A stretch of 62,661 bases of DNA, filler included, from Diploschistes diacapsis (taxonomy: Eukaryota), in NCBI GenBank assembly GCA_023645945.1. It is 17 parts of 17 records of this genome, joined end to end, with 100 filler letters (N's around TTAATTAATTAA, not from the genome) between each part and the next. Parts side by side here need not be neighbours in the genome. Positions count along the whole stretch, not along the records: positions 2,835 to 23,522 come from JALAIB010000333.1; 16 more parts are not named here. One strand, given 5' to 3'. Shown here in pieces: positions 11,821 through 48,539 of the stretch. The position numbers and the translations under genes were made by a program. Below the pieces are notes generated by a model, which saw only the letters and a list, made by a program, of their open reading frames with translations, did no database searches and had not been told where the DNA came from. The number at the start of each line of letters is the position of its first letter. Within the stretch, counting starts at the first letter, position 1.

Positions 11821-13021
11821 TTACCACTTGATGACTTTATTGGGAAAGAACTCGTCAATAAGTTCCAGATAGTACGGCTAGGAGTTCCGTCAGCGACAAG
11901 AGGCCAAGCTATGAGTAAATTCTACCTTGAGCTCTTCCACCGATGGTACCGCGTCGTCCTTCGAATAGAGGTCGTAGGGGTTGAACGCTTGCACTGCGGC
12001 CAGCATCTTCTTGTCCTTTTCGTTCATAAATTGGGTATATGCTCCTTCGCTGTGCCACGGGTAGAAGCTGTGGTATCTGATCATGGCTAGAGCCTCTTCT
12101 GGAAGCGTTGATTGTTCTTTGACAACACTGAGTGGAACTGATAAGCCATAATGCTCTTTAGCAGGATTAGGTCGTCGCGGTGACGCAGTGGTGGGATATC
12201 AAGAACGGACTTGAAGTAGTCACCGGCATAAAGATATGAAAAGGAGTGTACGGTAACATAAGGACCAAAAGGGAAGCGAAAGAGAAACAGCGGGCAAGGA
12301 GGGCAGCAAAGCGCAACAGAAGATCTTGTACACACTGATAAAGATACTCATCGTGTCCCCAGGATAGCATTACATTCTCCATGCCACAGCCGGGGGAGTA
12401 AATGCCATTGGGCGTGGCGTAGATGGGTTCGCAGGAGTCTGGATTGCCCTCGAACGTTTTGGGCAGGATGATCCCCTTATCAAAGCCGCATCCAACTGGA
12501 AATGTGTCTCCCACGACGGACCACTGCCCTGGAGCATCGAAGAAGAAGAGTAACTTCCCCAGATCATGGATAAGCCCGGTCAGCTGAAACCATCGAGGCT
12601 TGCCATCCCTTCTGATAGCCTCGGCAGACTGGAGCAGGTGCTCAATCTGGCTTAACGAGGTATCGGGATCAGACTCGTCGATGAGTGTGTTCAGCTTCTC
12701 CATTGCCTCCCAGACAGTCATCTCAGCCCTAGTCTTAGATTTGAAGTCGTTCCGTGCTTTCAGATTGTATGCAACTGTCTGCTTCTCATGTTGCTCTTTA
12801 TAGAAGGCCTTGACTCTATCCGTTGATTCCTTGTATTGCCTGAACTTGGTCTTGTCCTTGTCGACATCGAATTTCGACGCTTCATAGATACCTCTCTCGG
12901 CCTTGATCCGTGCCTTGAGCACATTCACTTCGTCGATGGCATCAGAGATCTCCTCCAACGCCAGTCCGCTTCGGTCAGGGTGTAGAGAGCGTGCTTCTTC
13001 AACTATGGGAGCTGGAGCCAT
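11821..13021 (-). CDS. MIOX: Myo-inositol oxygenase, 3 exons (introns 12128-12335 and ~11880-11926)
   Basis: Diiron motifs [61 protein letters not shown]. Ends [18 protein letters not shown]. Confidence 0.95.
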
Positions 13022-13947
13022 AGCAAACTTCCCCGCGCTTGAACACGGCAAAACAAAAGTTAGGCAAACTAAGAATGGCAGCGAGGCACGATTACATTAA
13101 ATCAATTCCAATTCGGTAAAGCCCGGATAGGCCCGGTTCAGGTGGGCCAGGGCTGCAGGACGACGTTAGTTTGAAAGCCATATTCAGTCTCAAATATCAA
13201 AACGAGATCTTCGCATTCTATTCTAGTGCGCGCTGTATGGCAATAACCTGGACGCCCCGAGGTATTTCTAAGGAACCAGATACCATTGCCATCAGTCCAG
13301 TCCAGGCTGCCATGTAGGGAAAGTCAAGTTTGCTGCCATTGAACCTATTTGATTACGCTCAAATGGCTAAGGGGCCTGCAGAGTCCTATTATGATCCAAA
13401 AATACTAACTTGTACGAGACTGGGCGGACTCATCTCATACAGCCTTTCTCGGCGTACAATTGTTAGCATGTCGCACCTGTTTTTCTGGGGGACTGCGGCA
13501 AAAATAGGAATTAGTCAGCTTAAAGTTGGACGATACCCACGTACTAGGTATCTACTCGGTAGAGGTTATGGAGCAAAACGGTGTTGGATACTGAGCCCAG
13601 CAGTCCAGCCATTTAATACCATTATATCTACTATTAAAGGTATTTTTGCAAGTTCGGCTTCCATCACTCACAACTAATCAGACCTCGGAATATTTCCAAT
13701 CCATGCTTTTGGTTGGCTCCAAGTGTTATGTATCATGGTGTTTATCCTGCTTTGGCGACTACTCTGCAAAATTTACCCAAAATAACAGCCTAGAAACCTC
13801 GCTCTATGAGGACGGTACAGCTAATCACCTTCGCTTGCTTCCGGTGTACTGAGATCTCTTGCAAACGTTCATCCAATCAGATGCCAATTCTCTCAGCCAA
13901 AGAAACTCCAAACGTGACAATGCGAAACAGTAGCGGCTGGCGGTACT

Positions 13948-14869
13948 TTAAGAGGACTTGCCATTGCGCTGGCTGTCTTGCTTTGCCATATATGGAGGTG
14001 GGATCCCAAAATAGTTTGAAGATCGTGCCCCGTACTTGCTTCCAAGGAACTTGTATTTGTCGTGGCCTGGAGCACCACAACCATGGAAGTTGTTGCTCTC
14101 CTCAGCGAACTCTGGATTCTCATATTCAAAAATGTTTCCCTTTCGGGTTTCCTTCAGCTCTTCAGAAGCTCGAGAAGACTCAACTTCACCAGTATCTACA
14201 CCTTTAGGCTCTTCCTGGCTACCTTCACTGGAAGTGTCATTGGCTCCGGTGCTTGCAGACGTTGAGCCTGGAGGGCCATTCGTCTTAACACGAGGCATCG
14301 GCACGGCCTTCGCTTTCCCTATCTCCTTACCTCCAATTGCATTCTTTTGGAGTTTTCGCACAGGCGGGACTTCGAACGTCTTATCAGCATCGCTTCAAGG
14401 AAGACCGGAGAGAAAGCCTACTTCGTTTCCGTACACAAAACCTTAAGAGCACGCTCTGCAGATCCGTTTGGACGGTGGCGATACTTAAAATCAGTGAATT
14501 CTTTTGTCTTTCGATCGTCGTCAAGATGCTTTCGAGTCGAACGTTCTCCGTGTCTTTGATCCAAATTTTAAGGAATCGTTTTGCGAGTATCCTACTCTGC
14601 TGCGCAAGAAGCTTATTCAAAACTGCCACTAAACTGCCCACAAAATCTGTGAGGCTATGTAGTTGGGATTGAATATTTGGCTTGTGGAGCGCAGGTATCT
14701 TTCGAATTTCTATAACAATGAAACGCAGTACTTCGACTTCTCGGAATTGAAGCCGAAGTTTCTCAGGCCTCGATTTGACCTTCTGATACACCTCAAAAGC
14801 GTACGCCAGACTACCGACAAGATAACTCGTCAGCTGAGCAACAGAAGCTATCGCTCCTATAGCGTCCAT
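13948..14869 (-). CDS. Gene A: SesA/HeLo-like N-terminal (cell-death effector-type) domain, low-complexity linker, C-terminal two-fold pseudo-repeat (candidate amyloid prion-forming domain); ~290 aa, 2 exons
   Basis: The N-terminus MDAIGAIASVAQLTSYLVGSLAYAFEVYQKVKSRPEKLRLQFREVEVL is typical of fungal STAND N-terminal helical domains. A ~52-55 nt intron (GTAGGC or GTACGG donor, GCTGAT branch, AAG acceptor, ~14370-14431) joins ORF 14384-15067 in frame to ORF 13948-14361. The C-terminus has repeats FEYENPEFAEESNNFHG and YKFLGSKYGARSSNYFG. Confidence 0.7.
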
Positions 14870-15961
14870 ATTGGTGTGCAGAAGTTGGGTCTCCGACTGC
14901 GACTTTCGTGATATGAGAGAGTAAAACTTACTTCGATCCCTAAAAAGGAAGCCATCAATGCGGGGGAGCTGACGCAGCCGAGAACTGCAGTGCAAGAGAA
15001 GCAGAGGTGGGGGGGAAGCCGCTGTCTTATAGCGCTTGGAGCAATCCATCCAATTAATGGCGAGCATGACAATTCAGGTGTGCAGAATAGGAGGTACGGA
15101 TGTGGCAAGCTAAAGAAGTAATGGGCACAAGGCTAGGCTTCAAGATTCATACTTCTTCACGACCTCCATAGCCTTGAGCCCAATGAGCTGAATAATGAAT
15201 AATGATCAATCAATGAGCCCGACTGGGTCTTCTCACGACGCTCAGGCTCTATTTAATGCTTCAGCCTTGCTGATGCTGTGGAGGCATGATTGGCTCAGCT
15301 AAGCTAAGCTGCATTGGGTAACTTCTCTGGATCTGATAGGGTTAAGAGGGTTCTAACTCGAGTTTAACATGAGGAAGTAATGGTATGATTAACTTGGGCT
15401 CAGCACAGTCTCTATCTCCTCAGTATCGCTACCCCTCTCATGTGATCCATCTTCACTCTCTATTTATACTCCGTTGATCTTTGTTCATACTTGGCCATAC
15501 TGGCGTGTTTGTCATGATTTAGTAAGGAGAAGATATTTGCATAAAAAACTAGCGCCCGATGCCTGTTCGCCCAAACCACATCGTGTGAACCCCCATTTCG
15601 GTGTTCAATATGAGCCATGACGAGCATTTTTGTTTGGTGTTGGGGTTTAGGAGGCAGTGCTAATGATGTCCTAGCCAGCAGAATATGGAACATGGGCCGG
15701 AACAGAGTTCCTCCATCGCGCACAATCAGCAGAACGGTTAATAGTAGATAGCTAGCTATTTCAGTATCCAACATATATAGCACAACCAAGATTGAAACAC
15801 TGCCCGATTTGTTGCTTGAGTTGGAATCAGATAAACTAATACCCATTCTATGGTAGATCCCAATACGAAACCAATGTACTCCATACAGAGGCGATAAGTA
15901 CACAATGCTCCATGTCAATGGCGGGGTCCCGATCTTAATCTCCCGTCCAGCTTGATCTATA

Positions 15962-16897
15962 TTAGCGGAACTGATTTTGGCCCTCCCCAAATCTTGTCTT
16001 CTGAAAACTCGCTATCCTTGCGCCCTTCTCACCGTTAAAGGTGTTGTCATAATGCTCAATGAAGGTTGTATCGTTAAACATAAAGGGGAAATCGGTGTTC
16101 ATCGATGCCTCTCGTCGTTCTTCCTCTTCTTGCCTTGTAGCGGCTAAGTTTTGTTCATGAGCCCCTATCTCTTCGATTCAGCAGGAAACCCATGGATCTA
16201 TGATTTGGGCTTAGTCCTTACCTCTGATCGACTCCATTACACCAAGAAGGTCGGATCTGTCTAAGACCCACACTGAGACGTGGAGATGTCTCACTTTGTG
16301 CAACGACGCCAAGATGAGGTGTGCAATGGTATCCCAAGTCGCTCGGAGAAGCCCAGGCATCTTGTTGCCCCTATCAATGCTACAAATTATCAAGCTAAAC
16401 AGTATCCGATAGGAGGAGTCCACGCCTGGAAAGCTAATCGACACTTTGTAAGAGGATAAGGATAAGGGTTATGCCCTGGCTTTGACCATGAAGAATTGGA
16501 TGTTGACTCGGAATGATTGCCTGAAGAATATTCCTGGATGATGTCCTTCTCTGGGACAATGCACCTTTATATCTCCAACGGCTTCTACGGGCGCACCACA
16601 TGGATGGATACCAGCCTTTCCACAGCGTTAACCACCATGCGCTTGCCAACTTCGAGAGCATTGCCGCTGCGGCAAGGCTGTCGAGCTGCTGCTGCTCTGT
16701 TAACCCAATTACGATGTGAAGTTGGAGCGAATAGGAAGCACAGAACATGGTAAGAACCTCGAGCACAGCCTCTGCATGATCGTCGAGCCAGTCACACGAG
16801 GGCTTAAACAGCATCGCGAAAGTCGGGCGAATTCCTTCACTTACAACAGCTACCGTCTTAATGCAAGAACATGCAGTGAGATTGGTTCAATTGCCAT
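15962..16897 (-). pseudogene. Gene B: frameshifted HeLo-like/SesA-type effector gene with a C-terminal two-fold pseudo-repeat related to gene A
   Basis: ATG at 16897 gives MAIEPIS, then after a frameshift TACSCIKTVAVVSEGIRPTF, resembling the MDPLSITAS...-type N-terminus. A second frame change or intron occurs near 16440. Intron GTAAGG...GCTGAAT...AG (~16165-16221) joins ESIRG in frame to AHEQNLAATRQEEEERREASMNTDFPFMFNDTTFIEHYDNTFNGEKGARIASFQKTRFGEGQNQFR*. Confidence 0.55.
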
Positions 16898-19800
16898 ATA
16901 GTTGTTGCTGCATCTTAAAAAGGGTGTAAGGGAGCCTTTCGCGACTGGAAGCTGATTATGGATATCATCTTGTGCAGAGCGACGCCCGACTGCGAGGCCA
17001 TTCTAGACTATGATACCCAGTAAACCAGGTGCAGCTCCAGGGAAGTAAAAACTAGATACTCTCATGCCACTGACAGCGGAAAGGAAGAACAAAATTTAGG
17101 AGGCCTCCCCGTCCGATCCCCGTTGGCTTCAAGTGAAGGGTCGAACCCCCACTACACCTCCACGGTTACTGCACTCGATGGTCCGCTAGCTAGCACCCGT
17201 AATTGATTCAGTAATGCTTCTCTTCGGTAGATCAGGTCGTGCTGTTCTATTTGCTTTTCCAACGTGTTTGGCTGTTGCTTCCTCCTACTTCCACAGGTCT
17301 TCTAGTGTGTGCCGTGAGATCCCAAGAATATATGAAAGTTGCGAATGCTGACTGGTTGTAGCGGCTCATCAAACCGTCGATGTCGGTGGTGGAGCCTAAA
17401 GAACTCTGAGAAAAATGAGCGACAAATATTGCTTCGGCGACTTCTCTCTCGATTACTACAAGATTGGGGCTTGGCTCTCCCTTCACCAATCTCCCTTCAC
17501 GAATCTTTGCTTGCGTGGCGTCCCTTGATTGCTTAGTCTCCAGCATGCATTCCAGACGAGGATCACCTGCTTTCAGCCTTGCATACCTATGCAGCACGGA
17601 TCACTTTCATATTTGCGCTTTTTGTGTCCTGAACCAGCTAGCAGAATCCTCGAAGACAGCATGTACTTGAAGGACCTTCGGAGATCGAATGATTGTTGAG
17701 TTCTATTCTCTGGCTCCTATCTAGCGTTGCTATGCATCAGAAGAAAAGTAGGATTCTGCGGGACATTACACAGCTTTTGGTACTTTTAAGGGGTTTTGGA
17801 AACAAACTGCTCTTTTCAATCGAAAAATCTCCCTCCTCTCCACGAAGCCTTCGTAGCAGGAATTAAGTGATTTCGGAGTTGTTTCATATCGGATAGAGCC
17901 AGGTTATCGTGAGTGCATGTTTTCTGTCGCGGTATGGAGGGATCATTAATATTAGCTACCCAGATATACCGTCCTTGATGTCCTAGGAATATAAGACGAC
18001 TTTTATCCCCATGACCCGAGAACACTTTACTGAGGGCCGCCACTTGCTTCTTCCAGGATAAACAGAGATCCCCAGGCCTCCAGTGCAAGATCCAATAAAC
18101 ATTTGAGAGAGGCCGACAGAGTTTTGCAGCCTATAAACCCGACCATAATAGGATTTCAGCGTCGAGGACTAATGAATAGTGCACAATGTATGTCCAGCGC
18201 AAAGCTGTACTTCAAGGACACTAAGAGATACGAGGCGGTTAACGTCTGCTCTGGCCTAAGCGCGCTTTAATGACAGAATCACCAGAATAACGTCCGCGCT
18301 TCCCTGGCGACCAATGCCTATCTTATTATCGCAGCCAGGCTTTAGGCTATGTGATTGAAGCCTTTGTCGATCCTAACAACAAAAGCCCCACGATAGCTCC
18401 AATCTATTGCCTGCATGGTGTGCTCGTGCTAGATGAAGAGGTCAGCGACTATGGATACAAAACGGGGCGTCTAGTTAAGATACTATGGCTGTGAGTGTTA
18501 GGTATGTTGCAGCGAGAAAGTAAGGAAAGCCACCTTGGATCCAATCCTTGAGCTGCTTGTCACTGATTTCATCTGGTGTAGTCTTAAAACACCTAGCACG
18601 CTTTACGGAGCCGCGCTAAGACAACCCCGGTAAACTTTGAAACCCTTCCACACTAGCTACGCCATGGAACATAACCACTACGAATGCTGAACAGTCCCAA
18701 GGCAAATGGAGCCACGATGTAGAGCTTTGATCTGCGTCGTTTGGAGCTAGTCTGTAATGCATACAACACTCTAGTTAACGAACCAAGAGGGCGAATTGAA
18801 CGTAACAGTTACATCGGACTACGCACGTTCTAATTCGAGGATATATGTTGGCCGGCTGGCCCGAGCAAGTCATAAAGAAAGACCGCCAGGCACATGGATT
18901 GCTTCGTGAATCTTGCTCCTTGAATACAAAGCGCAACCTCTGCGCCGAATAGCTTCACGAGCAAGTGCAATGGGCTTGAAGAAAGAGGTACCCCGTTGCC
19001 GATTCTTGATTGAAGCGGAACAGCGACCGTATAACCTGGTTACCCATTCCGTTGTTCTCTTTCGAGACGATCGCCCCAGATACCTCCAGCAACCGAGCTC
19101 GCGTGATACAGCATTTTTTAGTCTTGGACGTAATGCATGGCTTCGCTATACAAAACAACCCGGAACCAGCTTAGATCTACAGAGCGCTTTCGCTCAACGC
19201 CTGGTGGTCAACCAGCACCTATGAAACATGGTCAAGTTTTTCTCATGAACTGCTATCGGCGCCGCTGGCTCCTTGGCTACACCCACGCGGGATACCACTC
19301 CTCACAGAAGGAGCGGAATAACCATAACTCATGGTCGGATTTTTGGGCCCGTGTGTGTACGGGCAGTCCCAGCACGTCGTTGGGTTCGCTCTATTCTGTT
19401 ACAACTCTTCTGCATCCGTCTTAAACACGGATATAGCTAGGCCTTGAAGGTACAGACGTCCATATCACACTCTCGTCTATGCGGACAATCGATGCTTCGT
19501 TACTTCTTTAATCTTAGAGAAGCATGTTTATTTGCTTCATACAAGCGCAACAGCTGCTTTCTGCGGAATGCTAAACTATCACCAGACCAGGTAACATGTA
19601 GTTCCTGTTCGCTAGATAGTCAGAGTGATACAGATTCTATCTGGAACCGCAGAGCTCATGCCTAGAGGGAAGTTCTCCGGAGTGCAACTCTCCTCGGTCC
19701 CTTTGCCTTCAGCACCGACCTCAATCTTTAGCCGAGAGGACCCCTGACAAGGATGGTGCTAGCTAATACGGTGTGCCCGGACGCGTTCTGGCATAGTGTT

Positions 19801-19989
19801 TTGCAAGCAGCGTAAGGTGGGCCCTCAGCGGAAATTTCTTCGACCCTACCTCTGTCCCTAACGCTCATGCTCACTCCCTACGCCCTTACAAGCTGCTGGC
19901 TACAGTAGTACTTCTGCTATTCATCAAATCTCTCCGACCTCGCCGTCAGACACTAGCTGTCAGATACAGTCTTCGTAACCCACTCATCG

Positions 19990-21548
19990 ATGGCAATGTC
20001 TGCGTCTACGCCCCAGTTTTCCAGGGATAATCGCCAACAATTCCGTACTACCAATAAAGATGCAGAGAAGCGAGGTGCTTCGAAGATGTCGTTCAACGAT
20101 CCCGATTTGGCGTCCAGCAAAAACCATTTTGATGCACGCACCAGCCATAAACACATCACGAATAACTATCACAATACAGAGAATCATGGCCATAACAACA
20201 TCACGAACAACTATCACGCTGCACAGATTCATGTCCATAACAACTATCACGCTGCACAGATTCATGTCCATAACAACATCACGAATAACTATCACACTAC
20301 AGAGAAACCTTTCGATAATCCGAAATGGCACGTGAGAAGGTTCACTGTAAGTCGACCGTCAGATTTTACAGAGATATCGGAAGCGCTCATCTAGTCCGGC
20401 GTTAGGAGTAGCGAAATCGGCTTGCCCACGACTCTGTTATATACCCAATCGGGTCAAAGCGATTGGACGATAATTGGTCTTCGAACTTCACTCTACAGCC
20501 GGCCTGACCTCATCAGCACTGACATGGCCTGGGTTACCGTAACTTCTTCAAGATCCATACCCTTGAGTTTTGCCGGCACAGCCCGACTCCGGAAACACGA
20601 TGCAGCTTGCGCTGAGTGGCAATCCACATCAGCAGACGTCGGTAGCGATCGCATTGAAACATCGCCATTCAGCGGCGTACTGAACGGGGCAGGCTTTCGT
20701 TGAGCATGTACTTAGCGCCACTGTACTACTGCATAGATGCACATGGCCATACATAGCTAGCATACTAGTCACAACACAGTCGCTGCACTCGATATACTTT
20801 CACATTTTATGCTTCTGGCTATCAAGAACCTATCCAGGTGCCATCGTGATCTTCATACACTTGGAACTAGTATGAGATGCAATACTGCGAAGTGTCTTTC
20901 CCCGTAGTGGATCACCCAGCCAGCAACGCGGAGGCTCATCTGCCGTCGCAAGAATAAACTGTATCAATCGAAGAAGTGGACTCAAACACCTCCATAAGTA
21001 CAAGAGCAAGGCTCATGCTAAACCACCAGCCATCACTCTAACACCAAGACCGTATCCAGATATCGACCAAACGCCATCATCTACAAATATTGAAGTCATT
21101 AAGCGGCAGGTCCCGTCTGCGTTGACGCTATAAACAGGTACGTCTTGCATTCTCTACCAATACTTGGTATACCAGGGAACTTCCTGGCCTAGCGCTTCTT
21201 GATTTTTCCTTTACTAGCCATTCTCTGTCACCCATGGTCTCCTAACCATCGCAACTTTAGAACGCGGCATCAGATGGGTTCACCCAACACCAGATCAGCT
21301 TCGAGGGGATGGTCTATATTACAAGCTACTTATGTTCGTCTTCCGAGCAGCCAATGAGATCCAACAAGTCCTGGCCACAGAAACCGCTGCGTAAAACAAA
21401 CTACACACTGTCATACAGCCTTATGGAGGATGCGAGGAACATCCAACACTTCAGAAACTCAGTCCCCTATTTCTGCTCAGAATTTCCTCTTTCGGCTTCA
21501 AACATCCCATTGCAGCCGATGACTGGGCCGCTCATTGGCTTGGACTAG
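19990..21548 (+). CDS. Gene C: hypothetical multi-exon gene, possibly degenerate downstream, with an N-terminal amyloid-like motif and His/Asn-rich repeats
   Basis: ORF 19990-20394 has a GTAAGT donor at 20347 and CTCAT-CTAG acceptor at ~20394, continuing in frame into ORF 20422-20703. A further intron GTACGT...CTAAC...TTAG lies at ~21138-21259. The 3' boundary is uncertain and no P-loop was recognised. Confidence 0.4.
20152..20306 (+). repeat. Imperfect coding tandem repeat (30-39 nt units) encoding (N/H)ITNNYH / AAQIHVHNNYH
   Basis: ACATCACGAATAACTATCAC recurs at ~20152, ~20197 (variant) and ~20276. AACAACTATCACGCTGCACAGATTCATGTCCAT occurs twice. Confidence 0.9.
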
Positions 21549-22202
21549 AGGTCGGGCCACACGACTATTGACGCCTAGCCGGATGTGTAGTGTAACTCGG
21601 CGCTCCGCTAACCAGCTCCGGCGTCGTGAGTGCTTTGCCGGCTGATGAGAGTGGCTAGCGGTCATCATGCACGACATGTAAAGACGGTTTGCTTTTCAAA
21701 GCTTGTTCCAACTACTTGAAGGTAAGTACGCTTTTCGTTATTGGCTCTTGTCACTGCACAATCCATTTCCCCATTTTTGCTTTTTTCGCCTCGATCCGCC
21801 GTTTCCCTTTAAAGGCCTTGATCCGCCCGCGTCCTTCGGACCCCGTTGTTTCTTATTTCTTGACTCTCTACGGTCGTGTTCTTCCGATGCTGCGGTGTCC
21901 CCTGGCCATGGAGCAGTGGTGGGGCCAATTTTGACAGATGTCGCTAAAGGTCGCATTTTGATCCTCTCACTGTGGGGAAAAATCATGCGTGTGCCGTCTG
22001 GCCATATGAAGAGGACGGGCTCTCTCCGACAAGTCCAAGGTGTATAGACACATTCTTTCCTCCACCATCAGCCACAGTCCCCTGTTATATTACCGATTTC
22101 TGGCCCGAGCATATTTTGGACACAATTGAAGGCTTGGTAGAGCCAGCCACAGATCTACCTACAACTTCGTCCCCTTTCCCTGTTGTGTAGGGCTCCTACA
22201 GA

Positions 22203-23111
22203 ATGTCCTCCGATGGCGCTTCCACCACTGGCGATGATATCGCTGTCAAAGTCTCGACTTCCCAAACAGAAGAGGAGGAAGTATGTCCTTCCTCACTCGA
22301 CCTCAAACCTCATCCTTCGCTACACCCCTTCCCTCGACCTCTACTCACCATAAGTCTCCTACATTCAACTCCATTACCTTCGTTTCCCCTCTTCCTCCGC
22401 CCCAACGCCGCCCACACCCAAATCCTCCCTCTTCCTCCATCCCTACAGCGCCCACAACCTCTTTTCCCCCTCCTCCCTCTTGCTCGCACTAACTGGCTCC
22501 CACCCAGAGAAATATCGGCGTGGTAAAACAATACATGTCCCTCGCCTACTCTCCGCGCCTCAACAAGGGCCGCGACACCGTCCGCCACCTCTGCACGTCC
22601 CGACGCCAGCTTCACCGCGCCCACCACCTTCCCCGGCTGCTCGACACCGCTCGACTACGCCGACTCCCACGCGAAGGTCATGGCCTGCTTGTCGGACCTG
22701 CACATCGAGAGCTACGACGTGCTGTTTGCGAAGGGCGGGCACGTGCTGTTGAGGTACAGTGCGACGGGGAGCCACGCGGGGGAGCCGCACGACGGGATAC
22801 AGCCGAGCGGCAAGAGGGCGCACTGGACGGCGAGCGCGATCTTCGAGGTTCGGGACGGGAAGCTTGCTAGCTTTACGAAGGAGTGGGACAAGTGAGTTTT
22901 TCTTTTCCCCCCTCCTTGTCTTCTCTCTTTTTTTCCTCTTCCCTCGCCGAAATGGTTTTTTCTGGGATTCCCATGGTGAAAGGGGGCCCGAGAGAGAGAA
23001 CCACGCACGCGTTTCGCTTTGTTGGGGGATAACAGGCTAACGTTGTTGGTGCGCGCCAGACTGCACATGTGGAAGCAGCTGGGCTGGATGAAGGGGGACG
23101 AGTACGCATGA
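22203..23111 (+). pseudogene. SnoaL-like / NTF2-fold ester cyclase family gene, 3 exons, with one +1 frameshift at ~22598
   Basis: RNIGVVKQYMSLAYSPRLNKG...HLCT/PDASFTAPTTFP...DLHIESYDVLFAKGGHVLLRYSATGSHAGEPHDGIQPSGKRAHWTASAIFEVRDGKLASFTKEWDK/LHMWKQLGW. Introns have GTATGT and GTGAGT donors. Confidence 0.8.
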
Positions 23112-23622
23112 GGAGGTGGGGGGAGGACAAATAATGTGCATGATTACTTGCAGCAACTACTATACCATACTATAACTACGTTGAATCGATACACAAGCCT
23201 TCATCTGAAAGTAAACTACACAACGAATCCAGGTATCCAGCTCGAGAGGCAACTCGTGCTGCTTTCCGGGCTGCAATAAAACGTTGCTCCATCTTCGCCA
23301 ACCCCCTTGTCGGGAACAAGCTTGCGCTATGCCATACCCAAGGAGCAAGGGCCGCAAAAAAAGCTCCCCCCCCGTGGAGGCACCGACGCCCCGTTCTTGT
23401 AAAAAGCGCGCACACACGTCGGGGGGATTTTCTAGGACACACAATGGAGAAGAAGATCCCACGGCATCATCATGCGCCACGAGCGCTTTCCAAGGCGCTT
23501 GGTCGAAAACAGACCCTTCCTCNNNNNNNNNNNNNNNNNNNNNNNNNNNNNNNNNNNNNNNNNNNNTTAATTAATTAANNNNNNNNNNNNNNNNNNNNNN
23601 NNNNNNNNNNNNNNNNNNNNNN

Positions 23623-25543: not shown

Positions 25544-26220
25544 ACGTGTTTCACGGGGATTCCGGCCATCCCCAGATTCCGGCCACCTTAAATTACTATC
25601 GTTAACATTTTACGGTTTTTAGATATAATCTGTTTTTCGTAATTAGAATCTAATCGATCTAAATCGAATCTATTTTTTTCCTTTTCATCCTCCTCGATTT
25701 TAAAAACGCGACGACGTTTTTTACGCGTTATAAATCGTTTCGAAATTATTCGACTCGATATAATCCGAACTATTATTTTAAGAACTTCGTTTATACTAAA
25801 TATAAAACGACTTTTTAATTTAATTCGTTTATTTAATTTATATTTTTTATAATTATTAAAAACGTTTTTTATTTTCGGTTTTCTTTACGAAACGTTATAA
25901 GCTCAATATACGTCGATTTAAGCATACGGATTATTCAACTCGAATAACGTCGAATCGGGTTAATTAGTTTTAAAACGGCTCGTAACGTCTAATTAAATTC
26001 TTTATTAACCTTTCGTATTTCGGTAGTATTTAATAAAAAATTATATAAGAAAAATAAATTTAAATCGAATTGATTCGAGATTAAAAAAGGATTATAAAAT
26101 GGAAGTAAAGGGGTCCGATAGGTCGAATAAAGCTTATTAAACACGATTATAAAATTAATAAATTATAATTTAGTATTTATAAAATTTATCTAAACGTTTC
26201 GACTTATAATAACTCGATTT
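25544..26220 (-). mobile_element. Fot1/pogo (Tan1/Vader-like) DNA transposon 3' end, RIP-mutated, family A
   Basis: TA followed by ACGTGTTTCACGGGGATTCCGGCCATCCCCAGATTCCGGCCACC, a TIR with an internal direct repeat. The adjacent sequence is a degenerate transposase C-terminus. Copies at 29289-29740 and 37038-37676. Confidence 0.8.
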
Positions 26221-29288: not shown

Positions 29289-29740
29289 AATTAGACGTTG
29301 CGAGTCGTGTTAAAATTAATTAATTCGATTAGACGTTATTCGAGTCGAGTAACGTATATATTTGAATCGATTTATATTAAGTTTATAACGTTTCGTAAAG
29401 AAAACCGAGAACAAAAAACGTTTCTTAATAATCGTAAAAAACGTAAATTAAATAAACGAATCGAATTAAAAGGTCGTTTTATGTTTAATATAGACGAAGT
29501 TCTTAAAATAATAATTTAGGTTAAATCGAGTCGAATAGTTTCGAAACGACCTGTAACGCGTAAAAAACGTCGTCGCATTTTTGAAATCGAGAAGGATAAA
29601 AAAGAAGAAGATAGATTCGATTTAGATCGATTAGATTCTGATTGCGACGAATAGGTTGTATTTAAAAACCGTAGAATGTTGGCGGTAGTGATTTGAGGTG
29701 GCCGGATTCTGGGGGTGGCCGGACTCACCGTCAAACACGT
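29289..29740 (+). mobile_element. Fot1/pogo family A 3' end with TIR followed by TA
   Basis: RKENREQKTFLNNRKKRKLNKRIELKGRFMFNIDEVLKII is a RIPed transposase C-terminus. Ends GGTGGCCGGATTCTGGGGGTGGCCGGACTCACCGTCAAACACGT-TA. Confidence 0.8.
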
Positions 29741-32020: not shown

Positions 32021-32409
32021 NNNNNNNNNNNNNNNNNNNNNNNNNNNNNNNNNNNNNNNNNNNNTTAATTAATTAANNNNNNNNNNNNNNNNNNNNNNNN
32101 NNNNNNNNNNNNNNNNNNNNTTTTAAGATTATCCGTATATAAGTAAACTTTATCTCCCTTTTTCAACTAAGGATTCTTTTTTAAGATTCTAAATCTCTTA
32201 ATATTATTTAATATTTTATCGTTAAGTAATTATATATTTTAAATCTTTTAATTTTTTTATATTTATTATTAAAGCAGTATTCGGCGTTTAATAATAGTTT
32301 AATTTAATTATTTATATTCTAATTAACGTAATATCGTAAATATTATTCGAATATTTAATTCATTCTTTTTATTTAATCGTCTGTTTATAGATAATAAACG
32401 TTCGAATAG

Positions 32410-33435
32410 ATACGTCTTATAGGAACATTCACGACATATCGAAACATATCCTACTGACGAAATACTTAACAAGCGCCCCCAGGGCAACAACAAAGAGATA
32501 GCAGCGATGCAACGAGAGGGAAGAAAGTCGCGTCGTGACGCGTCTCATCCCCAGCAGGACCGCGCAAGCGGGCCGGCAAGGAGCTCGAACGCAAAAAATA
32601 AATTAAAAAACATAATGCAAGCAATCGAGACATACGTAAAAATATAACAGAACGAAAGATTAATATAATTCTAAACTATAATAACGGAAACGATACGCGG
32701 GAACGGCGCCGACGCGCCGGAACCTAACCGCAAAAAAAACGCGTCGAAATTAAAAGAAAGACTGAACACGATTAAAAAAGATATAAAAACGATATAAAGA
32801 ATTATAGAAAAGCAAAAAAGCAACCGCAACAACACCGGGAACAAGAGCTGAGCTCAAAAGGCGAGTACTATCTCCGAAAGAAAAAACATGGTAATAAAGA
32901 TACCAAAAAGAACGACTAAAAAAGTCACAATTCGGCCAGAAGATAAGATACAGGCGAGAAAGCAACGAAATAGGCCCGAATTAATAACGGACGCGAAAAA
33001 GATCGGAATAAAGAATATTATTATAACCCGACGGTTTCCTAACGAAGACGTAAGATTTATAATAAATTAAGAAAGAATAAAAGACGAAATCAAAAAAATA
33101 AAAAAATAAACAACGATATTCGGACGAAAAGCGAAAATAATACGAAAAAAATTTATAATAATAACGTATAAGATACGGATAAGCTTTATAAATATTACGG
33201 AACAAGACGCGACGGCATACGTTATTAATAAAATAAACTCGAATTTAAGAAATATAATACGCCGAATAATATAAAAAAAACGAATTTTAATAAACGGAAA
33301 AAAAATTTATTTATTATTCGTCGCACTTGGAACGCCGGAAGCAATCAATAGGTTAATAACGGAAAGTTTTTTTTAAAATAATCAAATTTACGATTACGAG
33401 TTATTTTACGATTATTATAACTTTAAATATATAAT
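32410..33435 (+). mobile_element. Tad1-like LINE 5' region and gag-like ORF1 remnant
   Basis: A GC-richer leader is followed by a RIPed reading frame with KKVTIRPED...IITRRFPNEDVRFII, resembling the RLPSGDV motif of fungal LINE ORF1. Confidence 0.5.
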
Positions 33436-37676: not shown

Positions 37677-37776
37677 NNNNNNNNNNNNNNNNNNNNNNNN
37701 NNNNNNNNNNNNNNNNNNNNTTAATTAATTAANNNNNNNNNNNNNNNNNNNNNNNNNNNNNNNNNNNNNNNNNNNN

Positions 37777-39213
37777 GAGGATGATGGTGTCTTGGGGGAG
37801 AATGGGGATTTGGGGTTGAGAGAGGGTGAAGCGGGTTAGGGGGAGGTGGAAGAGGAGTTTGCTGATGACGAGGAGAGATGTGACGGGAACCGAGATGAGG
37901 GAGAGAGAAGCGAGGGATGCTGTTTGGTGAGAGGAGGACAAGGAGGAAAGGCCTTGCGAGGTAATTCCTGGGAGATAGGCGAGGCGTAGGGAGGTGAGAG
38001 GACGGATGGAGAGGAGGGTCAAGTCGTTGAAGTCGTCGGTATCGAAGGAGGAGACGGAGAGGTGAGTCAGGGAGGGGAGGATCCGGAACATGGAGACGAA
38101 GACGCCGTGCTCGACAATGGCGCCAGGTTGGCCGTGCACCACAAGGGTTGTAAGAGATGGCCAAGAGGTGTGGTAGCCTAGGAATGTGGATGTTTGCTCA
38201 AGGTTCATGATCCCAGGCGGGAGTTGCCAGGTGGATCTATCCGATATCTCTTCATTTTCCCCAATAATCCAAATGTGCTCTTTTAGCTTCTTACGGGTTG
38301 ACAGAGCGTGATACAAGCGGGAAAAGTAGTGGTCATAGCTTGGATGGAACCCCGTTAGCTTCTCGAGATTTGGGCAGGTCATAATCACGGAAGCGACTAA
38401 ATCCATTATCTGCGCGGTAAGGGACCCGTTGGACAATGGATTGGAGACCCGAAGCTCCTGCACTGTCTCCCCTAGCGAACGGCGTCCTCGGAGCGTCCGA
38501 CGCAGGAGTTTCAATCGTACGCCAGAAGAGAGCTTGTATCTTTTTAATTGAGCAGGGGCATCTACGCCATCCAGGTGAATCTGCGTGTAAAGTTCCCTTT
38601 TTACTGCCCTATCCCAAGCTCGACACACCAGTGCCATACTAAAGGCATCCCGGTTGAAGCAGCTTGAGCAGCTCAACGAGTTTGGAGCCTCATGGATGGC
38701 ACGTAGTTGCTGGAGGATGCAGACCAGGACCTCTGCCGGAAGACTCTGCTGCTTAGAGAATGCCGGAGCAATAACTGAAGAGACACTTGACCTCCTAGGC
38801 CTCCTCAGCTCGAATCGACCCGATAGAGATGCTGGTTGCCAGGAAGGGCGACGGGATACCGGCGGTGAAGTTATGGCGGTCTCGGCGGACCTAGCCGATG
38901 AAATGGAAGTTCTGTAAGATCCATGGTCGGATAATGAGTTTGAGGTACCATCCAGATTGGGATAGGAATCGAGCGCGTTTATATTATGGACATTACGATC
39001 AATCTTGGAAGATGGGACTGAAAGACTAGAACCTGGCCGAACTCGAGGCCGAAGGATATCCTCGACAGTATTACGACTGAGACACTGTCAGCCTCGGACA
39101 AGAGCCTGATACGAGATGTCTCGAGAAAGCGCAGCTTAAACAGCAGCCACCACAACTTACTGATTAGGCAAAGTATGATTCGGCGGTAGAGAGAGTCGCC
39201 GGTTGGCATGCAT
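37777..39213 (-). CDS. F-box protein with LRR-like C-terminal region; 2 exons, 3' truncated at the contig end
   Basis: LPAEVLVCILQQL F-box start and LVCRAWDRAVKRELY, followed by LxxLxL repeats (LTHLSV, LTSLRL, LASLSL). Intron GTAAGT...GCTGAC...CTCAG (~39077-39160) gives the start MHANRRLSLPP at 39213. Confidence 0.8.
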
Positions 39214-42201: not shown

Positions 42202-45200
42202 ATGTCTCAAGTAAGGGAAGGATCCCGTGACCGAGAAATGGTGCTACGGCATCAACACTCTTTCTCCGAATCAGTTTCAAGTCGAGCCTCGATTCCCATG
42301 TACGCACTCCTCTCAGTAAGGTTCGAAAGGTTTGTTCGATGAAACTGACATGGCCTTGGCGCAAACGTAGGTGGGACAGTTCCGATCCAGATCGCGCTCC
42401 GCCTCCGCTTCCACTCAACCCTGGGGTATCGAGTCCAGTCACCAAACCGAACACGTCGGCAACTGTAGCGGCAGCAGCTGAAGCCATTGCGTCTCGCATG
42501 CGCGAGAGTCAATATGTTACCAATCTCCCTCCCGAAAAGTCGCCCGAAAAGTCCTTGATGAAAGGTCAATATCATAAGCGAATGCAGTCTATCCAAGGTA
42601 ATAGCTCCGTGAGAGATCTAAGCAGCTACCTGGAGAATTCGCGATCCACCAATCGATCACCCGAGCGGTCACCGGAGCGAGCCCGTACGCCTCTAGACTT
42701 CGAGAATAAACTTGCAGAGAGAAGTCCGACAAGATCAGGGACGCCAACGCCTATGCCAAAGGATCCAAGCAAAGATGCGCCGACTCTGCGGCCTTCGTCT
42801 CGGCCACCTCTAAAGGCAATTCTTGGCGAGTCGTCGCCGCAGTCCGCCACAATGCGTGCCCTACAGGCAACCCCCACTGACGAACGGGACGCGCTGTTAC
42901 CAAACGCAGCCAACACCTCGAATTCTCTCATACGAACTCCGCCATCCTTCGATGCGATATCCTCTCAGATTCTCAGCCTGACGACCATTGCGACAAACCT
43001 ACAACGAGAGATGGCACAGCTCAGTCGCAGAAGTAAGGACAATGCGATGGATTTGAACAATCTAAAGGACGCCACCAATGCTCGCGACGAGGACATTCGC
43101 AAAAGCTTACGGGATCTGGTGGCCAATCTGAACACCAAATCTTCAGACAGCGAAGGCGAGCGAATGAAAGGCTTCCCATTCAATCGAAGTAGTGGCCCAT
43201 TCTACCTCGAAGACAAGGTAAACACCTCGCCCAACGTACCAAAGAGCATCTCGCTACCACGAATCCCAAGCCCTGCCAGCTTTTCTGCAAGCCTCGACCG
43301 GGAACTGATAGCCACAACCCCCAATCCTTATTCTGTCGATGGAGCGGCTGCAATAGCTTTGCTTGAAAAGATACTGCGCGAAATGGGGACCAAGGAAGGC
43401 CAGGAAAGGCTAGTGAATTCATTATCTGAGCTTGTTGAACGAACTCCAAGCACTGATTCGTCGCCAAACATCTCAAAGCAACTAGAAGACATTATGAAGT
43501 TGCTGAAAGAAAGCCCTGACAGCCGAGCATTGGTCCGGGCTGGACCTTCAAATGCAACCCTGCCAAAGGCTTCCCAGATGGAATACGATTATGCAACTCA
43601 TCCGGCGGTTGCCCTTGCGCGCGCCGGACGCAGCGTCTCTGGGACTGCAGCTGTGCCTCCTGGGGTTACGTTAAGCAGCAATACCCGAGCCATCGACGTT
43701 CTCAATGACGACGTGATGAAGTTGCTGAAGAGAATGAAGGATAGCATCACCGAAGGTGGCGGAATGAGTGCGGAGATAAAGGCTCTTGTTCGTGAATTGC
43801 GGGGCGAGGTCCTTGGTATGGGACGTGAAATTGGGCGAAAGCTCGAGCAAGCAGAATCGACGTCCAAGAACGATGCCAGACCGTATGCTCAAGGACCAGG
43901 ACGGGAAGAAGTCGCGCGCATTGTTGAAGAAGGGCTTGCTGAACTGAGAGAACACATGGACCATGTCATGCGAGAGCATCGTCGGCAGTCCTCATCCTCT
44001 ATAACTTCGCGCAATGCAGTTGATACACAAGAGGTATACGCTGTTGTCAAGAATGCTCTTGGCGAACTTCGGATCCCAGAGCCAAACCAAGGGCGGGGAA
44101 TCGAGCGAGAAGAGATCCTGGAGGCTGTGCGCGAGGCCTGGGAGACATATAAACCGGAGATAGAGCTGCAAAATTTTGGCCTTGAAAGGGACGAGATTCT
44201 CGAGTGTTTGAAAGAGGGTCTTCAAGACTATAAGTCTCAAGATGCCGTCCGCGAAATCCATGGAGCATCGTTTGAGGAGGTTCTCGATGCTGTGAAGATG
44301 GGTCTGCAAGACTTCAAACCACCAATGCCTGTCGAAACTGAAGCATCGATCACACGCGAGGAAATTATTGTGACGGTTCGTGAATGTCTAGAGTCATTCG
44401 AGTTTCCTACGAACAGTCTATCGAGAGAAAGGGAGCCAGAAATCACCCGCGAGGATGTATTTGAGGCGGTCAAGGAAGGCCTACTTACACATGCGCCTCT
44501 ATCCAAAGAACTGGGATTCAATCGCGAAGATCTCTTTGACGCTGTGAGAGCTGGTCTGGAAGTAGCTTCCACACCAATGAACGGCGTCGGCGAACAGGTG
44601 CTTGACAAAATGCAGGATCTTATTGAAGGTATGCGTGGAGAGTTCCAACAGTATTCAGCAGCAAATGGCAGAGACACGGAACAGGTACTGGATGCCATGA
44701 AGGACGGCCTGGAAGTCCTGCGTGCGAGTATTGAAACGTACGTAGACAGAGCCTCGGATGTCACTGGTAAGGATGAGATAGTCGAAACCGTCAAGGTTGG
44801 GCTAGAAAACTTGCGAATCGACCTGGAAGGCACAATCGCAAACTCGCGCGGCGATTCAGGCCCAACAAGCAGCGCGGAACTTCTAGATGTCATGGAGAAA
44901 GAATTTGAACATCTGCGAGTAACAATCTCTTCGTCCGTCACTCGTGGAGAAAGCTCAGTCGGTGGCCGAGAAGAGTTGCTCGACGCAATCAGAGAAGGAT
45001 TCGACGAGTTGAAGGACTCAAGCTCTCGCAGCCTCGTCGGTGGGACAATGACAGAAGACTCCGTCAAAGAAGAGTTGAGACACCTGCGTGAAACGCTCGC
45101 AACAACAATCATCAAAGGTGGGGACTCTATTGATAGGGAAGAAATCCTTGAGACAATCCGCGAGGGCATTGACCGAATGCAACTTGAAAAGCAAGCGAGT

Positions 45201-48200
45201 GGCAGAACAGAGAGTATCGTGTCCAACACGAGTGAGCTTCTGGATGCCTTCCATGAGGGCCTCGATGGCCTAAAGGCTGATGTTGAACGTGTCATCAACA
45301 AAGAAGGATTGGAAGGTATTAGGTCTGACATCGAACGAGTTCTAAGCGAAATAAACAAGCCTATCGATATGACTGTCAACTACGAGATTCTCGAAATGCT
45401 TAAAGACGGCCTTGCTAGTGTTCGAGCCGACATCGATCGTCTAGCCACGGAACAGACAGGACAGATGGTAAACATATCGTCTGAAGGGAGAGAAGTGGTC
45501 GTAGCGGACGAAAACCCACCTAAGGCTATATCACAACCAGATATTGAGAACCTTGAGGTTATGATCACCCAACTTAAGATCAAAGTCGAGGCACTTGACA
45601 ACCAGCCACCTGTTCAATCGGCGGTCCCCGAAGATGCAGCTTTGAAGGGTGACGTTGCCCGCTTGGAAGAGATGCTGAAAGAGCTTCAGACAACAATTAC
45701 TGTAGTAGCTAGTCGTGACAGAAGTGCCCCTGAGGATGCTGCGAAAAGGGAGGATGTGAACGCCATTGAAACCATTTTGATGAACACAAAGGCCAAGCTG
45801 GATGAAATGATCTTCCCGGACACAAAGATGATGGCTAGAGCAGAACAATTTGACTCACTGGAGGTAGGCCTGAAAGACGCAAAAGACAGTATTGACGACC
45901 TCAGACTGCGATATGAGGACACCGCAGCCACAAAGGAAGATATTGGACTTATCGAAGCGATTGTTAAAGAGCTACAGGCAGGCTTTGAGGATATCCGTGA
46001 GAAAGCGGGCGAAGACAGCATTAGACGACCAGATATCGAAGCCCTCGAAGCCCTTTGTGTCGACACGCAAACTCAAATGCGAGAGATTGTCCCTGAGGGT
46101 GAATCAGTAGCTTCAAAGGCTAATGTTCACGAGTTGCAGACGCTTGTAAAGGAGTTCCATGAAAGAACTGAAGCGTTCCAGGAGAAGGTAGCCATGGACG
46201 CAGACATGACCGCACAGGCCTTCGAAGCCCGTAAGATAGAGCACGGAGGCATTGCTGACAAGATTGAAGAAGTCAAAGGTTTCCTTGACGACGTTCGCGT
46301 TGAGCTGAAATCAAAGATTGAGGGAAGCGGTCAAGGGATAGAGGGCATTGCAATCACCTTGACTGCATTAGGTGAAGCACTTACAGCAGCCAGTTCAGCC
46401 GAAAATATCAAGGAGATGAAAGAGACCCTTGAAGGCCGATTGGATCAGCTACAGGAAAGCCATGAGAGCGCTAGGTCTGATCTAGAGGCGCACCGGGACA
46501 ACTTACTTGGGAAGCACGACGAGCACAAGTCCGCTATCGTTGACGAACTCAGAACAAAGATCGACGCTCGGTTTGATGAGATTATGACCAAATACGACGA
46601 TGCTCAACTCTCTTCGAACGCAAAAGCTGCCGCTCTAGATGAGAAGAGTAACGAGAGCAAAGAGGCCATTACGAGCACGAAGATGATAGCCGAAGATTTG
46701 AAGCTTCTTATTGATACCCTTGGTTTGACGGTCACGGAATCTTGCGGCAACATAAGTGAAGACAGCAAAACAGTGTTCAATAAGGTTGAAGATCTTGCCA
46801 GCAAGTTAGACAATGGATTTACGGCCCTGACCGCAGACGGCAAGGAGGATCACCAGCTTACCCGCACTGAGCTCTCTAAGACTGCAGTTCTCGTTGAGAG
46901 TCTTCAAGCAAACATTGCCGAGCATAATCCAAAGCTCTTAGCTGCCGTCAATGATGTCTTCAGCATCATAAGCAGGCACTTTGAGGATGCGCAGAAATCT
47001 ACGGAAGAGATCAAGACCAGTGTTAGAGAGATCCCAAACACCTTTCCGGCTCTCCCTGCTCCAGTGGCTTCTCCTACCGAGGAGAGGGTGCTTCAACTGC
47101 CTGAAAAATACGACGACTCGGAAGTGCATGACAAACTCGACAGGCTGTTTGAGCTTACGGCAGAAGCAGGAAAGACCGCTGTGGAATTTGACGTGCTCGA
47201 GCAGATCAAGAGCCAGGTCACAAAGACTGCTTTAGATCTGGAATCTTTTGTCAAGTCTCAGCTTGCTTTGACAGCCGATGCTCAAGAGTCTAGAGCACGT
47301 GAGGCAGAAGAGGCTGCTATTGCATTGGAAAAGCGTGTTGCTCAGAAAGAAGTCGTTGAAGGCGATGCTGTTCGGCTCCAGCACGAAAAGACAAAGTTGG
47401 AGACTTCCGTCTCTGACCTTGCAACGTCAGTAGAAAGCTTGAGACAAGAAGAAAAAGAGATGATGAGTCTCAAAGCCAAGCTGCAAGCGGAGCTCTCCAG
47501 CATCGAGACAGCACTTCGGATTCGTAGAGAAGAGATGCACATCATGGAGAGCCGAGCGGAACGCCTTGAGAAGAGGATCATCGAAGGCGTTATGGACCAT
47601 TCTCGTGCCTTGCTTCTGTCTAGCAAGCCTCAGACGAGTCTTAACGCGATGAATCTAAAAAGGGTAGCGAGCGCGGCATCCTCAAACTTGACGGCAGTGG
47701 CAGCGGATACCAAATCAACGAAATCGAAAACATTGTTGCCTACGAAGCCTGTCCCCTCGGCTGTTCCCAGCGCAGTCAGTAGCGCTGTTGGCAAAGCTCT
47801 GAAGAAGAGGCAGGCGCCTTCCGCCACGGGTAGTCCTTCATCAAACACCAGAACCAACCGCCGGATCCTCAGTCTCAGCACAATCAGTGGGAACAAAGCT
47901 GCTTCAAATCGATCCATGGGTCTAGCTGAGCCTTCGGCATTAGCCAAACACACCTTGACAAACAGTGCTGGCGGCCTCAAGCGTAGTCACAGCGCCAAGT
48001 CCAACTTTCCTAGCCGCAAGTCGAGCTGGAATGGTTCGAAGCAGATCGGACTCTACGGTGACAACCGTCCCGAGACAGACAAAGAGAACAGTGTTTTGGA
48101 AGAGGAAGAGGAAGAAGGGAGCGATGGTGGGACGGAGCGTAGGTCAAGCTTCACGGGAACATACGCCACTACAGATTTCGGCGCCGAGAGCTATGCCACG

Positions 48201-48539
48201 GAGAGCGCCACCGATAGCGCTGTTGATGATAGGAGAATGAGCTTCGCTGCCTCATCTACCGTGGGTACCCTCGGAACGGGTGAGCCTAGTGTTCTAGAAG
48301 ACGATGATGCTGGATCGAGGGTCGATGAGGGTCAGAGCGAGAGTGAGGGGCAAGAAAGTGATGGTCAAATGCAATTGTATACTGGCGATGCAGTTCACGA
48401 GAGAGACTTGGGGGACGGGACAAAGAACATGGTCCTCTATCCTTCGGATAGCGGCCTAGGAACAGAGCCTCCGACGGCGGCTTTGGATGGAGGCGGAGCG
48501 TATTTCAGGGCAGGAGGGGAAAGTGTCCATGCTGAGTGA
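42202..48539 (+). CDS. Large (~2090 aa) coiled-coil protein of filamentous ascomycetes; true start upstream of the called ORF
   Basis: 6.2-kb uninterrupted exon. Intron 42300-42370 (GTACGC...ACTGAC...TAG) gives MSQVREGS...SIPMWDSSDPDRAPPPLPLNP. Long heptad-rich regions and no P-loop seen. Confidence 0.85.

Follow-up and report, generated by a model that had tools for sequence, protein, structure and literature searches.

Three Neighbouring Frames in Diploschistes diacapsis

The DNA analysed here is a stretch of 62,661 nucleotides (nt) from Diploschistes diacapsis (GenBank assembly GCA_023645945.1), which is referred to as the window. It joins 17 parts of 17 records, of which positions 2,835 to 23,522 come from JALAIB010000333.1. 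This part carries the locus in question, which consists of gene A and two smaller coding frames, B and C, at positions 13948–20394. The original prediction had regarded these as a fungal amyloid-signalling cluster, the genes of which share one unrecognised motif of about 17 residues. Gene A (minus strand, 14869–13948) is a real gene, with a helical domain predicted for its first exon and a disordered tail in its second. B is read from the same strand, and C is transcribed divergently from both, as had been described. The features of the locus are collected in Table 1. An intron immediately before the motif-bearing exon had been proposed for A and B, and putative in-phase introns can indeed be read in both of them, 55 nt in A and 51 or 57 nt in B. 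For A, GTGCTC, located 18 nt further upstream, could also serve as an in-phase donor; for B, the longer form uses an alternative TAG acceptor at 16165 (16221–16165).

Table 1. Features of the A/B/C locus, in window positions.
Feature	Position	Strand	Remarks
Gene A exon 1	14435..14869	−	145 codons from ATG at 14869; predicted SesA/HeLo-like four-helix-bundle domain
Gene A putative intron	14380..14434	−	55 nt, phase 0; GTACGG donor, CTGAT branch-like site, AAG acceptor; read from sequence
Gene A exon 2	13948..14379	−	143 codons + stop; disordered Ser/Thr/Glu/Lys-rich tail bearing motif copies
A copy of shared unit	14086..14148	−	TRKGNIFEYENPEFAEESNNF; exon 2 residues 78–98 of 143; carries motif 1 of the original prediction
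A second, weaker copy	14005..14055	−	YKFLGSKYGARSSNYFG; basic where copy 1 is acidic
B last exon	15962..16170	−	open frame 15965–16177, stop 15962–15964; 71 residues
B putative intron	16171..16221	−	51 nt, GTAAGG donor, AAG acceptor; read from sequence
B copy of shared unit	15968..16030	−	EKGARIASFQKTRFGEGQNQF; residues 50–70 of 71, one residue short of the stop
B first copy	16031..16084	−	FMFNDTTFIEHYDNTFNG; one extra residue between aromatic positions
C open frame	19990..20394	+	134 codons + stop; motif copies near N-terminus, then His/Asn-rich tandem repeats
C copy of shared unit	20068..20130	+	KRGASKMSFNDPDLASSKNHF; residues 27–47 of 134
C first, weak copy	19996..20046	+	MSASTPQFSRDNRQQFR; without statistical support of its own
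In-frame tandem repeat of C	20116..20316	+	periods 33 + 45 nt; encodes HNN(IT)NNYH... units
Turn-type element in C	20311..20328	+	FDNPKW, same form as YENPEF in A

A Shared 21-Residue Unit

The six peptides on which the original prediction was built were all located on their strands (A, 14080–14130 and 14005–14055, minus; B, 16031–16084 and 15965–16012, minus; C, 19996–20046 and 20086–20133, plus), and its pattern has three six-frame matches in the window, all three of which lie at the locus. What A, B and C share is one unit, longer than the 17 or so residues that had been proposed, namely a gap-free stretch of 21 residues with the form [KR]-G-x-h-x-S-[FY]-x-[ND]-[PT]-x-[FL]-[AG]-x3-N-x-F, and the match extends gap-free over 21–23 residues. 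In A it falls within the C-terminal region, in B it occupies the very C-terminus, and in C it is found close to the N-terminus, as the original prediction had placed its motif. A looser pattern, written after the fact, has six six-frame matches in the window, five of them at the locus.

The three-way sum-of-pairs score at a width (w) of 21 residues was 83, as compared with 44.2 ± 7.3 for composition-preserving shuffles, of which 0/1000 reached the score; the count was also 0/1000 at w = 21–25. At w = 13 a score of 70 was obtained (shuffles, 45.5 ± 6.0), which was reached by 0/500 shuffles in one run and 3–4/1000 in another. When any one of the frames was swapped for real-protein chunks of the window, the w = 13 score was reached in 0/67, 0/153 and 0/181 cases. 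Among the 495 neighbouring triples that can be drawn from 44 protein-like frames, A/B/C ranked first at w = 21 with its score of 83 (next, 61; mean, 31.8 ± 11.4), and 5/495 reached 70 at w = 13. In a BLASTP comparison of B with C, the aligned part was exactly the B unit. At the DNA level 26–28 of the 63 nt are identical, with 9–13 of 21 at codon positions 1 and 2 each and 3–6 of 21, the chance level, at position 3; no DNA-level repeat linking the A, B and C units was found. An old, protein-level conservation would fit this, since the identity lies at codon positions 1–2 and a DNA repeat is absent. A second three-way match was detected in the charged stretch adjoining the unit (score 53, reached by 2–5/1000 shuffles), which suggests a longer homologous segment. 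Judged by these sequence comparisons, the sharing by A, B and C exceeds chance for one 21-residue unit.

The coding character of the frames was assessed using a codon log-odds score trained on 5860 codons from the clear genes of the window. Exon 1 of A scored 0.121, exon 2 of A 0.122 (0.103 over its last 63 codons), the last exon of B 0.235 and C 0.135 (first 119 codons), while 288 stop-free background frames gave −0.050 ± 0.116 (95th percentile, 0.121) and real 70-codon chunks gave 0.203 ± 0.113. The codon score of A exon 2 was reached by 14/288 background frames and that of the B last exon by 3/288; for the amino-acid part of the score, the counts were 7/288 for A exon 2, 0/288 for B and 5/288 for C. 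The coding signal derives wholly from amino-acid composition. By total coding score, A exon 2, C, the B last exon and A exon 1 rank first to fourth, in this order, among the frames of at least 30 codons in 13300–23000; the A, B and C frames are the most protein-like in about 10 kb.

The Predicted Helical Domain of Gene A

Relatives of gene A exon 1 were collected with HMMER from 1.84 billion representatives, all of which were searched (E ≤ 1e-3); this yielded 74 proteins, namely 73 non-self relatives and the unspliced frame of gene A itself (P0001). The closest relatives (P0002–P0008) are 36–47% identical and 152–290 residues long. Two of these end in ...SK, which, to judge from the protein ends only, suggests read-through into a GTAAGT intron. 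P0002 and P0007 retrieved no relative when used as single queries against metagenome contigs. Direct Pfam searches, which had been suggested together with the original prediction, gave no match for A exon 1 (0 families at E ≤ 1), B or C; the family of A was where such matches appeared. Among 29 aligned members (23–44% identical to A), SesA was matched by 10/29 (best E, 1.7e-6), PigL_N (formerly Helo_like_N) by 8/29, and MLKL_N by 2/29. Because its relatives match these Pfam models, the N-domain of gene A is assigned by transitive homology to the SesA/HeLo-like superfamily. The neighbours of gene A in the language-model Atlas were PigL_N/SesA clusters of Ascomycota (score 0.97). The 1036-residue P0049 has an A-like domain (6–142) preceding NPHP3_N/NACHT (204–387) and then ankyrin repeats, and is an NOD-like receptor (NLR) on account of this order; a domain of the A type hence also serves as the N-terminal domain of an NLR. 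P0046 (1233 residues, nSTAND1/AAA_16) matches only residues 74–136 of A, in 8 stretches, which is probably a coiled-coil or repeat artefact and not the mark of a true relative.

Four-helix bundles of this kind accomplish membrane targeting and cell-death execution in HET-S, HELLP and MLKL. AlphaFold2, supplied with the family alignment, predicted a four-helix bundle for exon 1 with a predicted local distance difference test score (pLDDT) of 82.7. A structure search with this model gave MLKL (4btf; Z 10.5, root-mean-square deviation 2.3, 99 residues), a further MLKL match (Z 10.2), Rx-CC (4m70, Z 10.1) and NRG1 CC-R (7l7v, Z 9.8). Since unrelated bundles reach a similar Z, the fold is compatible with the MLKL type but not diagnostic of it. 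Foldseek against the PDB returned zero matches to the model at E ≤ 0.001, and a sequence profile search of the PDB gave no relevant match.

Tails of Gene A and Its Relatives

When exon 2 was modelled alone by AlphaFold2, no secondary structure was predicted (pLDDT 58; a single-sequence run, which has low power). The second copy of the motif in this tail aligns three basic residues with acidic ones of the first copy, a feature seen post hoc (hypergeometric p ~0.015) and reminiscent of the inter-repeat salt bridges of HET-s. Seven of the 73 relatives (P0020, P0027, P0038, P0040, P0043, P0060 and P0072) have twin C-terminal units of ~21 residues that end in Q-h-N-G-[ND]-h-G and lie 28–32 residues apart. 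By sequence these look like HET-s-related repeats; Pfam gave no match for them at E ≤ 0.001. A profile of the 14 units recovered all seven proteins with E-values of 5e-10 to 8e-18.

Frames B and C

Either form of the B intron joins the last exon in phase to an 85-codon frame (16214–16468). This frame, with a codon score of 0.035, is not protein-like, and the frames 5′ of the last exon score about 0. An internal ATG in the B frame offers an alternative 46-codon reading.

The repeats in C are a minisatellite with the units HNNITNNYH and AAQIHVHNNYH, and 0/1000 shuffles reach their self-similarity. No stop interrupts any plus-strand frame across the minisatellite, and one frame of the minus strand is likewise open. 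Their NNYH ends are similar to NNFH in the A unit (BLASTP A–C, E 0.068). The turn-type elements of A and C are two of the four six-frame matches to [FY].NP.[FYW] in the window, a pattern that was chosen post hoc and is found 1.3 ± 1.0 times per window in shuffles. An Atlas search with C gave no usable match. Splicing of C from GTAAGT at 20348 into 20395–20700 was considered and rejected: this continuation contains no P-loop and no Pfam match, and its codon score is just 0.05.

Setting of the Locus

The window is fungal, and its large frames include a two-pore K+ channel, PGAP1, myo-inositol oxygenase, an F-box protein, ribosomal L27e and a SWIB protein (Pfam). Genes are sparse around the locus, which is flanked by the inositol oxygenase gene (12170–13096, minus) and by frames that begin at ~22.2 kb; 13900–22000 is free of N bases. 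Around B and C, ~6.5 kb (15100–19950 and 20400–22100) gave zero Pfam matches in frames of at least 45 codons and is emptier than the rest of the window; its guanine-plus-cytosine (GC) content of 0.47–0.49 is ordinary. AT-rich blocks (GC 28–35%) at 1–2 kb, 24–38 kb and 58–62 kb alternate with gene-bearing DNA of ~0.5 GC. These blocks look like the remains of transposons degraded by repeat-induced point mutation, and copies of dispersed repeats occur, for example, at 25591–25884, 29295–29516 and 32326–32544. One open frame of 2102 codons (42231–48536, plus) would encode a very large protein whose family was not recognised, Pfam giving just a sub-threshold UBA_2. N accounts for 1408 bases of the window, in short runs (e.g., near 2790–2835, 23530–23575, 37724–37777 and 58430–58475) that break some of the frames.

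A Possible Amyloid-Like Link

The three neighbouring coding frames may constitute a small module centred on the HeLo/SesA-superfamily gene A. The shared unit would most likely be a homotypic interaction element that operates by amyloid-like templating, as in het-S/nwd2, ses and HELLP/SBP/PNT1. A motif-bearing partner would take a beta-arch fold and convert the tail of A, and this conversion would release the helical domain. A death function of A is suggested by its family; the introns, the interaction and the amyloid fold are parts of the model that we infer. By analogy with these systems, our tentative explanation is that the motif links A to its small neighbours in an amyloid-like manner, in a non-canonical arrangement lacking an NLR in cis; to this we give somewhat less than an even chance. 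The cluster originally proposed survives in this reduced form: gene A is of the effector type and the shared unit sits at protein ends, whereas the domain assigned to B and the role of C as a sensor fell away. It is doubtful that the locus represents a new fungal amyloid-motif family, in which an executioner of the HeLo/SesA-like type would be connected to two small proteins consisting of little more than the motif, in the absence of an NLR in cis. If it did, the trigger would be either a small protein with a templating or regulatory role or a receptor not linked to the locus, in place of the adjacent NLR found in every described system.

A number of results weigh against the amyloid-like link, and some of them concern the sharing of the unit itself. 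An unrestricted six-frame search at w = 21 gave 36 neighbouring triples scoring at least 83, versus 18 in the reversed control. At w = 13, 358 six-frame frames of at least 60 codons gave 285 triples as high. A low-complexity filter reduced this number to 121, and A/B/C does not pass its pair threshold because B–C scores 15. Gap-free BLOSUM62 pair scores were unimpressive (shuffles reached that of A–B in 131–204/1000 and that of B–C in 439–697/1000 cases), and pairwise BLASTP was marginal (A–B, E = 2.0; B–C, E = 0.040; A–C, E = 0.068, where the alignment covers another stretch). Synonymous codon usage does not rise above background in any of the frames, the bona fide exon 1 of A included. Two copies per gene had been claimed, and the second copies in A, B and C are statistically weak. 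The likeness of A copy 1 to A copy 2 was reached by 286–418/1000 and 175/500 shuffles and is not significant; the self-repeat test is of moderate power, having detected the true twin repeats of 4/7 relatives at ≤1/500. The second copy of each frame, the first copy of B included, meets the earlier pattern only and fails to emerge in the gap-free three-way tests.

One alternative is that gene A alone is real, with B and C as chance open frames and the motif as a coincidence picked by eye. The many equally strong triples of the unrestricted searches, BLASTP E-values from 0.04 to 2, the absence of Pfam matches and of relatives for B and C, the near-zero scores upstream of B and a coding signal made of amino-acid composition only all favour this possibility. 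Nevertheless, we consider it unlikely. The best eight unrestricted w = 21 triples come either from DNA repeats dispersed in the AT-rich blocks or from low-complexity stretches rich in Pro/Ser/Thr/Arg, and A/B/C is of neither type. Chance also has to contend with the 0/1000 shuffles at w = 21–25, the outlying 83 against 61 among the 495 protein-like triples, the concentration of identity at codon positions 1–2, and the ranks of C and B as second and third most protein-like of the region, which are independent of the motif.

Further results that tell against the amyloid-like link concern the partners of A. A SesA/HeLo-like start had been claimed for A and B alike; it was recovered in A only. For the B region, tblastn with the 74 family proteins gave no match, a family profile scan detected A alone (E 4e-55; next best, 0.074 elsewhere) and nothing in B, and Pfam gave 0 matches in 85 frames of 14860–22523. 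C had been cast as the sensor. It is a 134-residue His/Asn-rich frame, the residues 1–60 of which retrieved two candidates among longer proteins, none at E ≤ 10. NACHT, NB-ARC, WD40, ankyrin and TPR domains were all absent from the same 85 frames (Pfam; two sub-threshold chance matches only), and no NLR domain was found among 15 large frames of the 62.7-kb window, so the sensor role did not hold up. The layout is non-canonical, with no NLR in cis, a small His/Asn-rich C and a B that has no recognisable effector domain. Any NLR that bears the shared unit would have to be encoded at another place in the genome. These observations bear directly on the canonical model, according to which A and B would both be HeLo/SesA-like death effectors and C an adjacent NLR sensor that templates both. 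The domain of A and the positions of the motif agree with this model; it is nonetheless highly improbable, as the C frame stops at 20394, no NLR domain follows it or occurs in the window frames scanned, the sole candidate continuation (20395–20700) has neither a P-loop nor a Pfam match, and the family domain was not detected in B with tblastn, the profile or Pfam.

A third group of adverse results concerns the tail. In the near-length search of the protein database, exon 2 found only itself, and no relative of greater length was found there for the exon 1 domain. The motif pattern occurs in 0/73 exon 1 relatives, but most of these seem cut at the intron (~150–160 residues). With the profile of the 14 twin units, the A tail scored 0.8 bits and the B exon E = 5.9 of 1165 frames, none of the window frames being above chance. 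Because this profile misses the A tail, the tail would be of another sequence type than the C-terminal twin repeats that the family uses. The composition differs too: the motifs described in PMC9815663 and PMC4518210 are rich in Gly, Asn, Gln, Val and Ile, whereas the unit here is aromatic, acidic and Pro-containing.

The last point leads to another explanation, in which the unit is truly shared and non-amyloid, being either a linear motif for a common folded partner or the trace of an old local duplication in fast-evolving disordered proteins. The occurrence of YENPEF in A and FDNPKW in C as two of only four such matches in the window would fit it, as would the predicted lack of structure in the A tail (from a single sequence, at low power), the frames scanned in the window with no NLR, and the longer homologous segment suggested by the adjoining charged stretch (53; 2–5/1000 shuffles). 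The [FY]-x-N-P-x-[FW] turn may resemble sorting or adaptor signals of the NPxY/NPF type. We know of no linear-motif or adaptor role for HeLo/SesA-type proteins. Placement of the unit at specific protein ends, together with the C-terminal twin repeats of the family, is what amyloid signalling predicts, and we consider a non-amyloid origin of the sharing rather unlikely, although it deserves to be taken seriously.

If the amyloid-like link is true, the motif would differ in chemistry from those described and would be shared with neighbours that are small and not NLRs. The range of sequences in which such switches are sought would then grow, and it could be asked whether control of HeLo-like executioners is possible with no receptor encoded in cis. 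The three short peptides form a concrete set for fibril and cross-seeding tests. If the motif proves inert, what remains would be an ordinary orphan gene of the HeLo-like kind in a region with few genes.

Comparison with Known Systems

To our knowledge, the five described families of fungal amyloid-signalling motifs were all defined through co-occurrence with an NLR. They are HRAM, sigma, PP and two PUASM (PMC12261475). An HRAM is a pair of 21-residue repeats in which position 19 is G and positions 5, 8, 10, 16 and 18 are hydrophobic, with loops of 6–18 residues; an NLR, usually an adjacent one, carries a single copy at its N-terminus (PMC4518210). PP is a pseudo-palindrome centred on Q with GxQxG, and sigma spans ~40 residues (PMC5485727). 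PUASM reads FxGxGxQxxGxGxF and is associated with PNP_UDP effector proteins and with NACHT NLRs (PMC9815663). In the motif-bearing pieces of A, B and C, Pfam HET-s_218-289, NACHT_sigma and Ses_B gave no match at E ≤ 1. Both GxQxG (PP/RHIM) and the PUASM pattern are absent from A exon 2, the B last exon and C, and no PNP_UDP domain was found in the window frames scanned by Pfam. Six 5-residue pieces of the motif had 0 occurrences in the supplement text of PMC9815663 (files 9, 10 and.hmm/.fa lying outside the search). Judged by the Pfam models and the published pattern definitions, the unit fits none of HRAM, sigma, PP and PUASM, in accordance with the novelty that had been proposed.

The HET-S/NWD2 pair with its HRAM, known from Podospora anserina and other Pezizomycotina (PMC4518210, PMC5485727), resembles the present locus in several ways. 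Gene A has a helical domain that is HeLo-related, then a flexible linker, and repeats towards the C-terminus. The unit is 21 residues long, a copy is located near the N-terminus of a neighbour (C), the two A copies have opposite charges where their positions align, and relatives of A bear twin repeats that look like those of HET-s. An effector C-terminus and a partner N-terminus are known sites of such motifs (PMC5485727, PMC4518210). The differences lie in the repeat itself and in the partner. When G is set at position 19, positions 5 and 10 are retained in both A copies and position 18 in copy 2 only, and 8 and 16 are occupied by P/S and N; between the copies the loop has ~4 residues, as compared with 6–18 in HRAM (PMC4518210); and the window holds no NLR partner. 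PUASM is similar in being a recent fungal motif family found via co-occurrence in neighbouring genes, and differs in that neither its pattern nor its PNP_UDP domain is present at this locus (PMC9815663). A further parallel would be that of the MLKL N-bundle and plant CC-NLR domains with the fold predicted for A exon 1. A kinase or NB domain is lacking in A, and helical bundles reach such Z values without kinship. The closest likeness in organisation is to the sigma cluster sesA/sesB/het-eN of Nectria haematococca and the PP cluster HELLP/SBP/PNT1, each of which has three genes and one short motif, present in a SesA/HeLo-like protein and a second protein, with a third gene nearby (PMC5485727). 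There, the third gene encodes an NLR and the second a lipase; at the present locus their places are taken by C, which is 134 residues long and His/Asn-rich, and by B, in which no domain was recognised. The locus is neither a member with a known motif nor a canonical NLR–effector pair, and in its layout it is like the three-gene ses and HELLP/SBP/PNT1 clusters.

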